This document shows positions 4,344 through 42,466 of a stretch of 43,096 nucleotides of DNA, piece after piece. How positions within the stretch are numbered: position 1 is the stretch's first letter; every line of letters begins with the position of its first letter. Made by a program: the position numbers and the translations under genes. This stretch comes from a phage. Below the pieces are notes generated by a model. The model did no database searches. It saw nothing but the letters and a program-made list of their open reading frames with translations, and had not been told where the DNA came from. The stretch lies in sequence record PZ445463.1, one strand, 5' to 3'.

Positions 4344-4370
4344 AAGGCCCCATTATGGGGCCTTAGTTTT
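4344..4370. terminator. Bidirectional terminator between convergent genes
   Basis: aaggcccca-tta-tggggcctt followed by agtttt. Confidence 0.5.
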
Positions 4371-4573
4371 CAACGGAATCTTGTGTTTAAATCCTGCTCA
4401 TGGACAACCCTCAGAACAGTGTCATAATCCCCGTATCTTCCAGGTTCAAATATATCTAATGCCTTGTAAGCAGACATTGCGTCAGGGAAAACCTGCAGAA
4501 CCTTTTTAACCCGGCACAAGTCACCGTCGAACTCTTCATCGAACTCTTGAACTACTTCGCAAATTGCATACAT
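4370..4573 (-). CDS. Hypothetical 67 aa protein, reverse-strand moron in head module
   Basis: ORF with AGGAGGTG SD (revcomp of 4579-4586); own promoter 4601-4629 on - strand; convergent terminator hairpin 4347-4362. Confidence 0.6.
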   Translation of the reverse strand: MYAICEVVQEFDEEFDGDLCRVKKVLQVFPDAMSAYKALDIFEPGRYGDYDTVLRVVHEQDLNTRFR

Positions 4574-4598: not shown

Positions 4599-4629
4599 GA
4601 ATAGTACCCTATTATATTGGGGTGTGCAA
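4599..4629. repeat. 31-bp exact repeat (second copy at 13124-13154)
   Basis: gaatagtaccctattatattggggtgtgcaa identical at both loci. Confidence 0.9.
4601..4629 (-). promoter_or_regulatory. sigma70-like promoter TTGCAC-N17-TACTAT with embedded GAATAG-N4-CTATT inverted repeat
   Basis: Read on - strand; 31-bp block 4599-4629 identical to 13124-13154; drives gene 4370-4573. Confidence 0.55.
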
Positions 4630-4680
4630 ACTATTTATTTACGTATTCCAGTTATTCCTCGAATTGTAAATGTTGGAATA

Positions 4681-4696
4681 AACTATTCGAATAGTT
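4681..4696. promoter_or_regulatory. Perfect 16-bp palindrome AACTATTCGAATAGTT
   Basis: Uses the same CTATTC/GAATAG half-sites as the promoter-embedded repeat, in everted arrangement. Confidence 0.4.
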
Positions 4697-4947
4697 GACT
4701 TTTCACTAAAAATATGATAAGCTCCACCTGAGCTTGTGAAGTATGAACAAGCGACCGCGGCGCGGGCAGGTAACGGAGCGGGACGTAAGTCCTGAGTGCA
4801 GTTACGCTGACGCGTTCGGAAGGGCCATACTCTATTGCTTGTGTAAAAAGTAACTGGTTTACTGAGATTACGCCGTTTCTATGTTTAAATGATAAGGACT
4901 AGCGCCCCGCTTTATGGCGGGGCTTTACTTATCGAGAAAGGGGAAAC

Positions 4948-11481: not shown

Positions 11482-11507
11482 AAGGCCCCGAAAGGGGCCT
11501 TTTTTAT
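11482..11507. terminator. Bidirectional rho-independent terminator closing major tail gene and reverse-strand island
   Basis: aaggcccc-gaaa-ggggcctt then tttttatt. Confidence 0.65.
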
Positions 11508-11737
11508 TACTCATCAATGTTACTCCTGTACTCCCGTAACTTTTCCAGACTTTCAATTGCTTCCGCTAAGTCGGTTCCGGTGTCCTTGTGTCCACGTAAA
11601 CCCATGCACAATAGCTTCTTCAATGCGTGCTGTAACGCCGGGTCGCGGATGTCGAAAGCGCGGAGCACATCATAAACGTCTACTGTCATAGTGCTGCCGT
11701 GAGTATTTGTCATTGTGCGGTTGTATTTTGAAGTCAT
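11507..11737 (-). CDS. Hypothetical 76 aa protein (third gene of reverse-strand island)
   Basis: ATGA-coupled to upstream metallophosphoesterase gene; stop lies in terminator T-tract. Confidence 0.55.
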   Translation of the reverse strand: MTSKYNRTMTNTHGSTMTVDVYDVLRAFDIRDPALQHALKKLLCMGLRGHKDTGTDLAEAIESLEKLREYRSNIDE

Positions 11738-12864
11738 CCCAGCATCTCCGGTGAAATAGTTAAACGTGCGACCTCGCCATATTCGGCGCTATAAGTAATT
11801 ACGTTTGCGCTACGCCCAGACATCCATCCGCCGCGCGAGGCGTAGGCGTCTTTCGCCGCTAAGGTGCGGTGTTGCTCAACAATCATGTTACGGCTTTCTA
11901 CAATCTTCTGGTGGTGCAGATGGCCTACGTGGGCGTAGCTGTAAACACTCTCGCCGAACGCTTTACGGAACTTGGCAATCATAACCGGTTCGATAGCGTC
12001 GAATCGTGCTTTATGCCCGTGATGGAAGAACAGCGTCGTTTTGCCGTGTTGCACCATCTTATAAACATCCGGCGACGTATCGACGAATACACGAGGCTCG
12101 TTGTCGTACAGTGTGCTGAACATCTCCGCCAGCCAAATCATTCCGCTTTCGTCGTGGTTCCCTTGCACTATAAGCAAGCGAACATTTTTATGCTTAACCA
12201 GTGCCATATCTACAACACGGCGCACCATACGAATCATGTAGCGAACAAGTTTTTGGTAGCGAGTGTCCGCGTCAAGGGCGTGACCGCTTGCTGGCGTAAC
12301 GGCAACCAGACTATCGAAGTGCGCGAAGTCACCTAACAGGTTAATAACTCCAGTTCCTGCATCCGGTGCTTTCTGAAACGCCGCGTCGAACCAGCGGGAG
12401 AACAGGTCTTCCGCAATCTTCATGTCCCAGTCGTCGCCGCTCTCGTCGGCCCAGGCCAGCATACCGAGATGAAAATCAGATACCGTGTAAAGATTGAGTA
12501 GCTTGCCGTCGCGTTTGGCGCGTGCTGCTTTAACAGGGGCGACTGGTGTAATCTCTGATTTCATTCCTTCGATTACGGCTTTCATCAACTCGACCTGACG
12601 TTCGGCATCGGTGTCTGTCTTAACCCATTGCAACTTAGTGTTGCCGAACTCGTCCACAAGTGACGACGTTCCTTTAATCTTGTAGCCATCTGGCACAAGG
12701 TGACTAACGTCACGTCCGTGGCCTACGCCTTTCTTAGCCAGCTTCGCTTTACGGATACGAATAACGCGGTCTGAGATGCCGTATTTACGGGCGATGTCTA
12801 CATTCTTCATCCCGGCGTTCAATTCTTCCTGTAACTGTTCGTCGGTTATTTTCTTCTGGGCCAT
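11734..12864 (-). CDS. HTH domain fused to Mre11/SbcD-like calcineurin-type metallophosphoesterase
   Basis: N-terminal HTH-like DIARKYGISDRVIRIRKAKL; metallophosphatase motifs in canonical order: SDFHLG (D-x-H), LLGDFAHFD (GD-x-x-D), VQGNHDE (GNHD/E), FHHGH, VGHLHH (GH-x-H). Confidence 0.7.
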   Translation of the reverse strand: MAQKKITDEQLQEELNAGMKNVDIARKYGISDRVIRIRKAKLAKKGVGHGRDVSHLVPDGYKIKGTSSLVDEFGNTKLQWVKTDTDAERQVELMKAVIEGMKSEITPVAPVKAARAKRDGKLLNLYTVSDFHLGMLAWADESGDDWDMKIAEDLFSRWFDAAFQKAPDAGTGVINLLGDFAHFDSLVAVTPASGHALDADTRYQKLVRYMIRMVRRVVDMALVKHKNVRLLIVQGNHDESGMIWLAEMFSTLYDNEPRVFVDTSPDVYKMVQHGKTTLFFHHGHKARFDAIEPVMIAKFRKAFGESVYSYAHVGHLHHQKIVESRNMIVEQHRTLAAKDAYASRGGWMSGRSANVITYSAEYGEVARLTISPEMLG

Positions 12865-12903: not shown

Positions 12904-13095
12904 TCACTTCTCGTTAACATTCGAGTTGCAGGCCCAGATTAAAATAAATACCCACGGCAGCAGAACCCAACCAAGAAACAGATTAGCCATGAATATCGCT
13001 AATTTCGCTTTATGGTTGCGGAAGTATGCAACCAAGAAAGGTGCGAAATAGGCGAGCAGTGCAAACAGAATTAAGGAAACTGGTAAACTTGACAT
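12904..13095 (-). CDS. Small two-helix membrane protein (63 aa)
   Basis: Hydrophobic segments LPVSLILFALLAYFAPFLVAYF and IFMANLFLGWVLLPWVFILIWA; start set at second ATG (13095) with AAGGGG SD; first gene after promoter 13126-13154. Confidence 0.55.
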   Translation of the reverse strand: MSSLPVSLILFALLAYFAPFLVAYFRNHKAKLAIFMANLFLGWVLLPWVFILIWACNSNVNEK

Positions 13096-13125
13096 TTTAA
13101 ACCCCTTCATTGTTGGTGTAAGCGA

Positions 13126-13154
13126 ATAGTACCCTATTATATTGGGGTGTGCAA
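13126..13154 (-). promoter_or_regulatory. sigma70-like promoter TTGCAC-N17-TACTAT (exact copy of 4601-4629)
   Basis: Identical 31-mer; positioned upstream of reverse-strand island genes. Confidence 0.55.
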
Positions 13155-13261
13155 GTAATGTGATAGAATAATTTTGCGCCTAGTGTCGCACACGAAAAGC
13201 GGGTGGTTCCCGTCTGGCGCGTCAATCTTAACCTGTAACCTCTTAACCAAAGGATTAAAGA

Positions 13262-23341: not shown

Positions 23342-23346
23342 AACTA

Positions 23347-23372
23347 AGGCCCCGTTTGGGGCCTTTTCTCTA
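23347..23372 (+). terminator. Terminator after tailspike gene
   Basis: aaggcccc-gttt-ggggcctt then ttctct. Confidence 0.5.
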
Positions 23373-25903: not shown

Positions 25904-26219
25904 TTCTAAATTCCTTATATTGTTGGGGTATGTGCTTACTATAATAGTCTGCTATTAGGGTGTCAATCTGTTTTATCGAACCAACGACAAAAACATTTGC
26001 GCCACGTTTACGTATACGCTCGTGTTCCCGTAGCTGGTGCGGGTCTGGCTTAGTGTTTTCGTCTTTCTTCACCTCGACGAACCAGACGATGCCGCCGGGT
26101 AGAATTGCCAGCAGGTCAGGAGCGCCTGAACGTCCTTCGTAGGAAAGTTTACGAACGAGGCCACCAATGGCCTCGAATCGCTCTTTTGCGTATTTCTGGA
26201 TGCGGCCCTCTTTAGTCAT
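25887..26219 (-). CDS. VRR-NUC domain nuclease
   Basis: PD-(D/E)XK-like core GAPDLLAILPGGIVWFVEVKKDEN ... QLREHERI. Confidence 0.6.
   Translation of the reverse strand: MTKEGRIQKYAKERFEAIGGLVRKLSYEGRSGAPDLLAILPGGIVWFVEVKKDENTKPDPHQLREHERIRKRGANVFVVGSIKQIDTLIADYYSKHIPQQYKEFRNETRI
25938..25966 (-). promoter_or_regulatory. sigma70-like promoter TTGACA-N17-TATAGT with AATAG-N4-CTATT in spacer
   Basis: Lies within 3' coding end of VRR-NUC gene; upstream of 25712-25903. Confidence 0.45.
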
Positions 26220-30270: not shown

Positions 30271-30299
30271 ACTATAATAGCTAACTATTCAGGTGTCAA
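30271..30299 (-). promoter_or_regulatory. sigma70-like promoter TTGACA-N17-TATAGT with GAATAG-N4-CTATT in spacer
   Basis: -35 and operator half-site overlap the last codons (YLTPE-stop) of ORF 30285-30488; upstream of SSB-like gene. Confidence 0.45.
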
Positions 30300-32570: not shown

Positions 32571-32599
32571 ACTATAATAGCGAACTATTCACATGTCAA
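32571..32599 (-). promoter_or_regulatory. sigma70-like promoter TTGACA-N17-TATAGT with GAATAG-N4-CTATT in spacer
   Basis: Upstream of acidic-protein gene; divergent from the XRE gene. Confidence 0.5.
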
Positions 32600-32615: not shown

Positions 32616-32633
32616 AATTAATATGGTACTATT
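32616..32633 (+). promoter_or_regulatory. Possible extended -10 promoter (TGgTACTAT) with degenerate AATAT-N4-CTATTC repeat, for XRE gene
   Basis: TG-n-TACTAT at 32624-32632; no good -35. Confidence 0.3.
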
Positions 32634-32663: not shown

Positions 32664-32879
32664 ATGCAACCATCTGAACTAGGCATCCGTGTAGAACAAC
32701 GCCGCAAAGAACTCGGCATCTCCCAGCGCCGTTTGGCGGCCCTGACCGGCGTTTCCCAGGGCGCGATTAACCAACTGGCACTTGGAGTAACTCAGGACGT
32801 CCGCCCGGCAACGCTGTTCAAACTGGCGGAAGTTCTGGAAGTAGACGCCAAGTGGCTGGCGTTAGGTGAAGGGGCTTAA
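32664..32879 (+). CDS. XRE-family helix-turn-helix transcriptional regulator (Cro/CI-like)
   Basis: HTH signature ISQRRLAALTGVSQGAINQLALG; AAGGAG SD; isolated + strand gene between two - strand operons; terminator overlapping stop. Confidence 0.75.
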   Translation: MQPSELGIRVEQRRKELGISQRRLAALTGVSQGAINQLALGVTQDVRPATLFKLAEVLEVDAKWLALGEGA

Positions 32880-32895
32880 AGCCCCTTTCTTTTTA
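32869..32895 (+). terminator. Terminator overlapping XRE stop codon
   Basis: aggggct-taa-agcccct then ttctttttac. Confidence 0.55.
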
Positions 32896-35313: not shown

Positions 35314-35604
35314 TTACCGTTTAGCCAACCCTTCCAGCAAATTTTTATACTCTTCAAAATATTCCTCGACCAAATCATCGCCGAAATAGAAGTCGATATA
35401 CTCGAGATTATCTCTTACGTTAAGCGATGCCGACATGGTGCTTAGTTGGCGTAAGCTAATTAGCTTCATTTCTGTTTCTACGCAGAAAGGCCGGTAGGTA
35501 TCAAGATGGCAAGAGATATTGAAGCATAAAGCGAACTCTCCGGCCACGGAGTGAACCATATACACTTCGTTTTCTGCTTTATTGTGGAAAATTACGCCTT
35601 TCAT
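35314..35604 (-). CDS. Hypothetical 96 aa protein
   Basis: ORF coupled to upstream HTH gene. Confidence 0.5.
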   Translation of the reverse strand: MKGVIFHNKAENEVYMVHSVAGEFALCFNISCHLDTYRPFCVETEMKLISLRQLSTMSASLNVRDNLEYIDFYFGDDLVEEYFEEYKNLLEGLAKR

Positions 35605-35786
35605 TTCACGTTCTCCTTAATCCATGCTTCGACTTTATTACGGTCAAATGTTCCCGGTAAACGGCGGCCCATAACCTTAATACAGCAGTCAGGGAATTTG
35701 CCGCTGCGCAACCAGTTATTAATGGTCTGACGTGTCACCCCGATACGCTCGGCTACCTCATTCTGTGTCATGTAATGTTGCATTTT
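35601..35786 (-). CDS. Small HTH DNA-binding protein (AlpA/excisionase-like fold)
   Basis: MTQNEVAERIGVTRQTINNWLRSGKFP; start at internal ATG 35786 with GGGGA SD; first gene after - strand promoter 35815-35843. Confidence 0.6.
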   Translation of the reverse strand, partial: KMQHYMTQNEVAERIGVTRQTINNWLRSGKFPDCCIKVMGRRLPGTFDRNKVEAWIKENVK

Positions 35787-35814
35787 TATATCCCCTGTTT
35801 GTTTAGTGAAACCG

Positions 35815-35843
35815 AGTATAGGATAGCGGGAATGTAAAAGCAA
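35815..35843 (-). promoter_or_regulatory. sigma70-like promoter TTGCTT-N17-TATACT (leftward, HTH/primase operon)
   Basis: Read on - strand; about 30 nt upstream of ATG 35786. Confidence 0.45.
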
Positions 35844-35880
35844 CCAATCCCTGCAATATTTAATCTTTACAAAAAAGTTA

Positions 35881-35910
35881 TTGAAAGTTCTTGACACATG
35901 TTTGTATAAT
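35881..35910 (+). promoter_or_regulatory. sigma70-like promoter TTGAAA-N18-TATAAT (rightward)
   Basis: Consensus -10 TATAAT at 35905-35910; back-to-back with the leftward promoter. Confidence 0.5.
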
Positions 35911-35936
35911 GGTTTTGGGACTTGTATATATTACGG

Positions 35937-35969
35937 AGTTGACGAACCCTCCCCGAGGGATTCGTCAAC
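35937..35969 (+). other. Strong hairpin gttgacgaa-ccctcc..gaggga-ttcgtcaac
   Basis: 9-bp perfect outer stem plus inner ccctc/gaggg pairing. Confidence 0.5.
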
Positions 35970-36109
35970 CCCTCCCAGACAGCTGAGATGCTTGCCTTGT
36001 GGTTTAAGGATAAGTGTATCTAAATCTCATTTAAAGAAGTAACCCGCTGAAATATCTACTGTTTCTTAATGTGCCGTAGATTCGCAACCGTAAAAATGTA
36101 ACGATTATT

Positions 36110-36137
36110 GGGCAGGCTTAGGGCCTGCCCTTTAGTT
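36110..36137 (+). terminator. Terminator ending the short non-coding unit
   Basis: gggcaggc-ttagg-gcctgccc then tttagtt. Confidence 0.5.
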
Positions 36138-36202
36138 ACCAAGTAATAAGAATAAAGGCACAACAGTTTCGAAAGAATCACAACGGCAACGTAACTATTC
36201 TC

Positions 36203-36231
36203 TTGCACACCCCAACATAATAGGATACTAT
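36203..36231 (+). promoter_or_regulatory. sigma70-like promoter TTGCAC-N17-TACTAT with TAATAG-N4-CTATTC inverted repeat
   Basis: Two mismatches from the 31-mer family; followed by conserved AACGAGA leader and SD of first early gene. Confidence 0.55.
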
Positions 36232-36265
36232 TCACTTATCGAAACGAGACAGAGGAGTGAAGGTT

Positions 36266-37641: not shown

Positions 37642-37670
37642 TTGCACACTGTGATAGAATAGGCTACTAT
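37642..37670 (+). promoter_or_regulatory. sigma70-like promoter TTGCAC-N17-TACTAT with GAATAG-N4-CTATTC inverted repeat
   Basis: Same architecture and AACGAGA leader; upstream of 37702 ORF. Confidence 0.5.
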
Positions 37671-37701
37671 TCATTTACACAAACGAGAGGAGAGACAGAA
37701 G

Positions 37702-40467: not shown

Positions 40468-40487
40468 CTATTTTCTGCAATGACTAG

Positions 40488-40516
40488 TTGACTATTACCT
40501 ACGACCCTATTATATT
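40488..40516 (+). promoter_or_regulatory. sigma70-like promoter TTGACT-N17-TATATT
   Basis: Follows terminator 40435-40467; same AACGAGA leader upstream of 40550 ORF. Confidence 0.5.
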
Positions 40517-42462: not shown

Positions 42463-42466
42463 CAGA
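42391..42466 (+). repeat. Perfect tandem duplication, 2 x 38 bp
   Basis: ataccaatcgcactggtatacggcggcgatataacaga occurs at 42391-42428 and 42429-42466. Confidence 0.85.

Follow-up and report, generated by a model that had tools for sequence, protein, structure and literature searches.

The Cro protein and the repressor of phage 434 bind 14-bp palindromic operators, morons (in the concept of Juhala and Hendrix) are promoter-gene-terminator cassettes set in late operons, and virulent coliphages such as T7, with promoters A1-A3, and T5, with its early promoters, carry families of early promoters served by the host RNA polymerase. The element considered here, a 31-base pair (bp) block (GAATAGTACCCTATTATATTGGGGTGTGCAA), bears on all three systems. 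It lies in a window of 43,096 bp, the whole stretch of DNA analysed, which is the complete genome of Escherichia phage SonjaBuckley_Bas74 (hereafter Bas74; Kagunavirus, Guernseyvirinae; PQ850627.1), rotated by 538 bp with respect to the record. Phages of the Kagunavirus group are small O-antigen-dependent siphoviruses described as virulent, and the BASEL paper reporting Bas74 is silent on their transcription (PMC11990801). Serratia phage eta already provided a case of morons in a homologous structural module (PMC3918226). Nothing specific on Guernseyvirinae promoters or operators, or on the promoters of MB78, was found in the literature searched, and within it the mechanism proposed here, a familiar one, is undescribed for the Kagunavirus/Jerseyvirus group.

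The block is probably a composite element, in which a host sigma-70-type promoter, predicted from its anatomy and conservation, is overlaid by a 14-bp palindromic operator. As + strand text it is present exactly at 4599-4629 (site 1) and 13124-13154 (site 2), and on the - strand both copies read TTGCAC-N17-TACTAT and end 25 nucleotides (nt) from the ATG of the gene at 4370-4573 (start 4573) and 28 nt from the ATG at 13095, respectively. Sequence identity between the two sites is confined exactly to the 31-mer, the flanks being unrelated, and the 31-mer had no match in 100 dinucleotide-preserving shuffles. On the opposite strand, a copy with two mismatches (29/31) is found at 36203-36233, and a fourth one (25/31) at 37642-37672 reads TTGCAC-N17-TACTATTC, with an ATG (37702) 31 nt downstream. 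The arrangement TTGCAC-N17-TACTAT recurs in all four copies, which we call family A, with TTG and TAnnnT kept and a spacing within 16-18 bp. Every copy points to a start codon with a Shine-Dalgarno (SD) sequence 25-35 nt downstream, with TTG...TAnnnT spaced by 17-18 bp, and the copies are scattered at operon starts on both strands; several orthologous sites were independently annotated as RpoD promoters by the depositors of phage AG11. A preliminary description of this DNA had reported the exact repeat ahead of - strand genes and a two-mismatch near-copy at the rightward early genes, both of which were recovered, and had read the block as a promoter that co-regulates the reverse-strand genes with the early genes. 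Anatomy and conservation support the promoter, and co-regulation is the natural reading of a shared promoter family, in both cases at the sequence and comparative level. No match to the block was found in 5,426 complete E. coli genomes, and an origin in the host or its prophages was rejected on this ground. The four family A sites and the palindromes of the two exact copies are the following:

4599-4629, - strand: site-1 promoter block; -35 TTGCAC at 4629-4624, N17, -10 TACTAT at 4606-4601; predicted start at about 4594
4600-4613, no strand: operator-like palindrome of site 1, overlapping spacer and -10
13124-13154, - strand: site-2 promoter block; -35 at 13154-13149, -10 at 13131-13126; predicted start at about 13119; present in 41/41 Kagunavirus/Jerseyvirus loci
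13125-13138, no strand: operator-like palindrome of site 2, with arms constant in 37 distinct versions
36203-36233, + strand: predicted rightward early promoter, 29/31 copy; operator at 36219-36232; upstream of Bas74_0055 (ATG 36266); identical in phage K1G
37642-37672, + strand: second predicted rightward promoter of the family, 25/31; operator at 37658-37671; ATG 37702

The 14-bp palindrome, AATAG-N4-CTATT, occurs in seven exact copies in the window, all of them within promoter-like sites, and when up to one mismatch is allowed there are 13 sites against 1.1 expected, and a total of 13 was reached in 0/100 shuffles. All seven strong promoter-like sites carry an exact operator: the two moron sites, the two rightward early ones and three leftward ones ahead of replication genes. 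The latter constitute family B (TTGACA-N17-TATAGT, - strand, at 32599, 30299, and 25966), and once superposed by the palindrome, families A and B agree in its arms alone. In family A the palindrome spans spacer positions 11-17 and the -10, and in family B it lies 6 bp farther upstream. A third register is found at site 2 of Jerseyviruses, where the palindrome is 3 bp upstream, that is nearer to the -35, and the -10 is TATTAT. An unbiased enumeration of palindromes with two 5-bp arms placed this one at the top in Bas74 (7 copies), K1G (6), RP180 (8), PBSE191 (4), AG11 (5), and dunkel (5), the remaining abundant palindromes being terminator hairpins. Family B and two further promoter-like sites, both with a one-mismatch operator, are as follows:

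32571-32599, - strand: family B promoter TTGACA-N17-TATAGT; operator at 32576-32589; leads to Bas74_0047 through the exonuclease gene
30271-30299, - strand: family B promoter; operator at 30276-30289; leads to the SSB and DNA polymerase genes
25938-25966, - strand: family B promoter inside the 3' end of the resolvase gene; operator at 25943-25956; leads to the methyltransferase and helicase genes; AG11 orthologue annotated as an RpoD promoter
4690-4723, + strand: promoter-like TTGACT-N14-TGa-TAAGCT, with the -35 within the one-mismatch operator AATAGTTGACTTTT; leads to the spanin, scaffold, and capsid genes; kept in K1G, RP180, and dunkel
40483-40516, + strand: promoter-like TTGACT-N17-TATATT, with the -35 within the one-mismatch operator ACTAGTTGACTATT; conserved in relatives; AG11 orthologue annotated as an RpoD promoter

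Conservation was evaluated at site 2 in 41 IMG/VR loci of the Kagunavirus and Jerseyvirus groups, anchored on the phosphoesterase gene (at least 88% identical). Each of them contained exactly one exact palindrome, always upstream of the operon, and the ten arm positions were constant over 37 distinct versions of the site, in which the -35 took five forms and the N4 six. At these 41 loci, and at 28 site-1 loci, the block lies 25-35 nt upstream of an SD sequence and start codon. As the arm located in the spacer is constant in three registers, contacts with RNA polymerase do not explain it. The sites thus resemble the early promoters of T7 and T5 in being several near-identical sigma-70-type promoters, conserved beyond the hexamers and placed to launch early transcription, but differ from them in that the additional conserved sequence is a palindrome that shifts its register between classes and covaries symmetrically between lineages. 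The latter property is apparent outside the Kagunavirus and Jerseyvirus groups. A short contig of a sister lineage has AATAC-N4-GTATT at the equivalent promoter, from which the use of this variant throughout a genome was predicted; this was borne out in Pantoea phage AH01, where AATAC-N4-GTATT is the top AT-rich palindrome, with five exact sites (at two moron promoters, the site-2 promoter, an early promoter, and beside an XRE-type regulator gene) and a one-mismatch copy at the promoter of the latter gene. In the Cornellviruses Shemara and FSL SP-031, TATTA-N6-TAATA occupies the moron and early promoters. Written in the same 5-N4-5 frame the alleles are AATAG…CTATT, AATAC…GTATT, and ATTAs…sTAAT, with the differences mirrored in both arms, a pattern expected of a site read by a symmetric dimer. 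Shift in register and symmetric covariation together indicate, as far as comparison of sequences can, a bound dimeric regulator rather than contacts of RNA polymerase. Furthermore, Jerseyviruses and Cornellviruses both infect Salmonella and differ in the palindrome, while Kagunaviruses, which infect E. coli, have the same palindrome as Jerseyviruses in spite of the different host; the factor that would bind it is therefore most likely encoded by the phage and not by the host.

The best candidate for this factor is a 71-amino acid (aa) protein of the XRE type, whose gene is missing from the Bas74 record. It matches HTH_3 (PF01381) with 49.7 bits against a cut-off of 23, and phage repressor PHROGs as well, and its closest solved relatives are 434 Cro, also of 71 aa (E 8.5e-6, residues 6-68), and the 434 repressor. 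The gene was present in 9/9 genomes tested and always adjoined a divergent promoter with an operator, and the exact palindrome was found at 36/36 XRE loci of the Kagunavirus type; in a survey of 80 XRE loci clear results were obtained only for this group and for the AH01-like one. Orthologues are annotated in PBSE191, AG11, dunkel (as "transcriptional repressor"), Shemara, AH01, and SP-031, and among the small Bas74 proteins kept in AG11, Shemara, and AH01 the XRE protein alone has a recognisable DNA-binding domain, so that no other recognisable DNA-binding protein is retained in all four lineages. From this phyletic co-occurrence and the symmetric operator variants, the operator would most likely be bound by an XRE dimer. 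Likeness to 434 and lambdoid Cro extends from the single HTH_3 domain to the layout of the sites, with a 14-bp palindrome over the core promoter, a divergent promoter under operator control, and a weaker site at the gene's own promoter. The half-site, in contrast, is unrelated (AATAG vs. ACAA in 434), and the operators are not gathered in a switch region as in 434 but dispersed over at least seven promoters, including those of replication genes and of the morons in the structural module. Neither a CI partner nor a lysogeny module is annotated in Bas74. Because there is no integrase or second CI-like repressor among its 81 annotated features, and the only other helix-turn-helix (HTH) protein found is the 60-aa HTH_17 protein, the XRE protein would work like Cro outside any lambdoid immunity switch. 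The features in question are:

32664-32879, + strand: unannotated XRE/HTH_3, 434-Cro-like gene, 71 aa; ribosome-binding site AAGGAG; own terminator
32620-32633, + strand: predicted promoter of the XRE gene, with the one-mismatch operator AATATGGTACTATT over the extended -10 TGgTACTAT at 32624-32632; conserved in K1G and RP180; AH01 counterpart at 42463
32868-32888, no strand: terminator hairpin between the convergent XRE and helicase-primase genes
35601-35783, - strand: gene of the HTH_17 protein Bas74_0052, 60 aa, a less likely operator binder; promoter TTGCTT-N17-TATACT at about 35843-35815

In place of the XRE gene the record calls a 31-aa open reading frame (ORF) on the opposite strand, Bas74_0048 (32679-32774, - strand).

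Taken as a whole, the observations are in our judgement best explained by host promoters that bear operators and are governed by a Cro-like repressor, an explanation that we consider probable. Promoter activity, the binding of the protein to the operators, repression as the direction of control, and the timing are what we infer, and the course of events may be outlined as follows. At infection the repressor would be absent, and the host RNA polymerase would fire all the promoters that bear operators; the reverse-strand cassettes would then be expressed along with the genes for early functions and replication, uncoupled from the late structural genes that surround them and shielded by bidirectional terminators. 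Rising levels of the Cro-like protein would fill the operators, block the -10 and spacer region, and turn the regulon off, and the protein would regulate its own gene through the weaker site at its promoter. More tentatively, as a serious possibility that falls short of being probable, the entire early and replication programme of Guernseyvirinae, a subfamily regarded as strictly virulent, may run on a single Cro-like repressor acting at dispersed copies of a 14-bp operator, with the promoter acting as a fixed "socket" for hyper-variable gene slots, whose cargos comprise a methyltransferase, a nuclease of the homing type, superinfection-exclusion proteins, and many unknowns, and with at least three operator-repressor specificities (AATAG, AATAC, and ATTAs half-sites), so that lytic phages would have a counterpart of the immunity groups known from temperate ones. 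The only Kagunavirus transcriptome is that of vB_Eco_K1B4, in which phage reads made up 9% or less and from which single-cycle timing is uninterpretable because sampling extended from 5 to 120 min with a latent period of 30 min (PMC12645636). Its authors classed the HTH_17 orthologue as early, the XRE orthologue and the structural genes as "middle," and the gene of the superinfection-immunity protein (Imm), the first gene behind site 2 in Bas74, as "late," together with the helicase, methylase, and DNA polymerase genes (PMC12645636). The Bas74 orthologues of the last three are all located behind exact-operator promoters, and the classes are consistent with Imm sharing its control with other operator-bearing genes rather than with the adjacent structural ones.

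Several observations count against this explanation. The "late" class of Imm and the "middle" class of the XRE gene in K1B4 do not support early expression followed by shut-off, and no start sites were reported in that work (PMC12645636). TTGCAC and TACTAT match the sigma-70 consensus at 7/12 positions, below the threshold of a generic promoter scan (at least 9/12), in which they were therefore unlisted; the scan, whose counts were near the shuffled expectation and which is thus uninformative, reported instead ATCACA-N17-TATAAT within the site-2 block, making use of a perfect TATAAT in the spacer. Because the hexamers reach only 7/12 and were not flagged, the promoter assignment relies on anatomy and conservation. 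The spacer TATAAT (within 4607-4623 and 13132-13148) is situated 4 nt upstream of the assigned -10, with a start-to-start offset of 10 nt, and overlaps the left operator arm; it might serve as another -10 or compete with the assigned one, which leaves the exact -10 assignment uncertain, and the rightward copies have CATAAT and TAGAAT at this place. The recognition helices of the XRE proteins differ between Kagunaviruses (SQGAINQ) and Jerseyviruses (SQSLITH) despite equal operator arms, and a simple code from XRE helix to operator was rejected for this reason. Finally, the phyletic case against the HTH_17 protein, presented in the next paragraph, is based on three genomes.

The sites might instead be plain constitutive sigma-70 promoters, with the palindrome a by-product of shared ancestry and of an AT-rich, quasi-palindromic -10, and no dedicated binder. 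The CTATT arm overlaps or abuts the -10 in every register, and is to that extent constrained by RNA polymerase, and the family A copies are clearly paralogous; nonetheless the arm in the spacer, which sigma-70 reads little, is constant in 41/41 loci while the -35 varies, families A and B have just the arms in common and in different registers, the lineage changes hit both arms symmetrically, and the palindrome ranks top in the unbiased enumeration, so that we regard this reading as unlikely. That the repeats have no part in transcription, and serve for example as replication, packaging, or recombination sites, is highly improbable: their promoter activity is indeed deduced, but every copy faces an SD-equipped start codon at the distance and with the hexamer spacing given above, operon starts on either strand are where the copies lie, and orthologues were annotated as promoters by the AG11 depositors. 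Binding of the operator by another factor, be it from the host or a small phage product such as the early HTH_17 protein Bas74_0052, seems doubtful. The HTH_17 protein is 82% identical between Bas74 and Jerseyviruses, in line with their shared AATAG arms, compared with just 49% for the XRE protein, its orthologue is among only four "early" genes in the K1B4 RNA sequencing data, and HTH_17 and the AATAG palindrome occur together in 6/6 genomes and are both missing from Cornellviruses and AH01. However, AH01, Shemara, and SP-031 have the same architecture with a variant palindrome and without HTH_17, which was down-weighted accordingly; in K1G the HTH_17 protein has diverged (70%) and its putative recognition helix is altered, yet the operators are the same; and the HTH_17 gene has no palindrome at its own promoter. 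A host factor is unlikely in view of the different palindromes in two genera of Salmonella phages.

The exact identity of the two blocks in Bas74 had been attributed in the preliminary description to either recent duplication or strong selection for co-regulation, and recent duplication did not withstand comparison with relatives. Anchoring on the neighbouring head gene gave 28 loci with the site-1 promoter, all with the block at the same slot and with 0-5 substitutions, and 27 with the site-2 promoter, 15 genomes having both. In these 15 genomes the mean number of mismatches between the two blocks was 2.67 within and 2.90 between genomes (permutation p=0.19), and 23/210 between-genome pairs were also identical. 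Recent duplication was rejected because the two blocks of one genome are no closer to each other than blocks of different genomes. The Bas74 31-mer is moreover the family (site-2) consensus, identical to 11/24 site-2 copies elsewhere, and the three other contigs with the site-1 cassette of Bas74 differ at 2-3 positions in their site-2 copies. It is true that the zero mismatches of Bas74 are the minimum of the within-genome distribution and that identity stops sharply at the block borders, as could result if one locus had been duplicated or had converted the other, but against the above figures we find such an event quite unlikely. Identity is better ascribed to purifying selection that keeps both at the family consensus.

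Behind the two exact copies, each reverse-strand unit appears as a promoter, its cargo, and a bidirectional terminator made of a hairpin and a T run, all predicted at the sequence level:

4370-4573, - strand: cargo gene Bas74_0006, 67 aa, 43% G+C content (GC); found in only three other IMG/VR contigs
4344-4364, no strand: predicted bidirectional terminator AAGGCCCC-ATA-GGGGCCTT, at the end of both the site-1 cassette and the + strand head operon upstream
12904-13095, - strand: Imm gene, PF14373, 48.3 bits; likely ATG 13095 with SD AAGGGG
11734-12864, - strand: calcineurin-like phosphoesterase or "DNA repair exonuclease" Bas74_0022, phrog_704, 1e-166
11507-11737, - strand: Bas74_0021, 76 aa, last gene of the site-2 operon
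11482-11501, no strand: predicted bidirectional terminator AAGGCCCC-GAAA-GGGGCCTT, closing the site-2 operon

Bas74_0006 had no Pfam match and just a weak one to phrog_27256, of unknown function. The Imm start is given as 13110 in the record, probably wrongly, as the orthologues begin with MSSLP..., matching ATG 13095. The site-1 slot lies between a Hoc-like head gene and the spanin genes, and in relatives the promoter with a similar leader precedes at least 13 unrelated cargos, among which a DNA methyltransferase of the N6/N4 type, an HNH/endonuclease-VII-like protein, a phrog_3007 protein of 173 aa, and numerous small proteins of unknown function. At site 2 it is the first gene that varies, with two Imm variants, a 108-aa secreted protein, and a 97-aa membrane protein. 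In K1G the site-1 gene is absent, and the exact operator is also absent there.

The moron concept fits these putative cassettes, which are located between conserved structural genes on the opposite strand, have their own promoter-like site and terminator hairpin, and vary by presence and absence among relatives. In base composition the small cargos are lower in GC than the structural genes on either side (43% for Bas74_0006 and 42% for Imm vs. 53%), and the phosphoesterase stands at 51.5%. What is unusual in comparison with classic morons is that the slot retains promoter, operator, and terminator as fixtures and exchanges its cargo, at site 1 among the families counted above, and that the promoter bears the phage's own operator, by which the cassette would be wired into the phage programme instead of being autonomous in a prophage. 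If this is true, it would account for the expression of reverse-strand accessory genes on an early schedule inside the late region, and offer two promoter-anchored swap slots, handy both for finding accessory functions and for inserting payloads under native control. It would also provide a simple transcription map for Kagunavirus and Jerseyvirus, which are therapy candidates and a synthetic-biology chassis, and name a regulator gene missing from the Bas74 annotation, and the symmetric operator variants would represent a small natural series on the evolution of repressor specificity.

Some minor observations were made on the same features. The bidirectional stem AAGGCCCC-loop-GGGGCCTT is present at all three points where + and - strand units converge (4344-4364, 11482-11501, and 23346-23365), with different loops, and this stem family occurs 3-6 times in every relative examined, as GCCCC/GGCCC/AGGCC palindromes. 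Two annotated coding sequences, Bas74_0024 (13137-13250, - strand) and Bas74_0054 (36056-36235, - strand), overlap promoter/operator blocks in otherwise intergenic DNA and are probably spurious. Between the divergent site-1 and + strand promoters, a run of half-sites at 4672-4703 (GAATA-AAC-TATTC followed by GAATAG-TTGA-CTTTTC) suggests extra or cooperative binding sites, and GAATA-N3-TATTC occurs three times in Cornellviruses. At the junction of the portal and head-morphogenesis genes, just past a terminator-like hairpin, lies a one-mismatch palindrome, TATAGTATGCTATT (2797-2810), which is kept in RP180; at the same junction Jerseyviruses have a reverse-strand amidase gene with an annotated promoter.

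In a gene-free stretch at 35,790-36,200, a + strand promoter close to consensus, TTGAAA-N18-TATAAT (35881-35910), is followed by an intrinsic terminator (36110-36130), the unit extending over 35881-36138. The predicted product of 222 nt folds strongly, at -71.3 kcal/mol (z -3.9), with no plausible ORF; no Rfam family was matched by it or anywhere in the window. A conserved small RNA in this stretch was considered and rejected, as it is structured in Bas74 but nothing of it recurs in K1G or RP180. In Jerseyviruses the 3' ~90 nt alone recur, and a promoter is annotated at the corresponding position of AG11.

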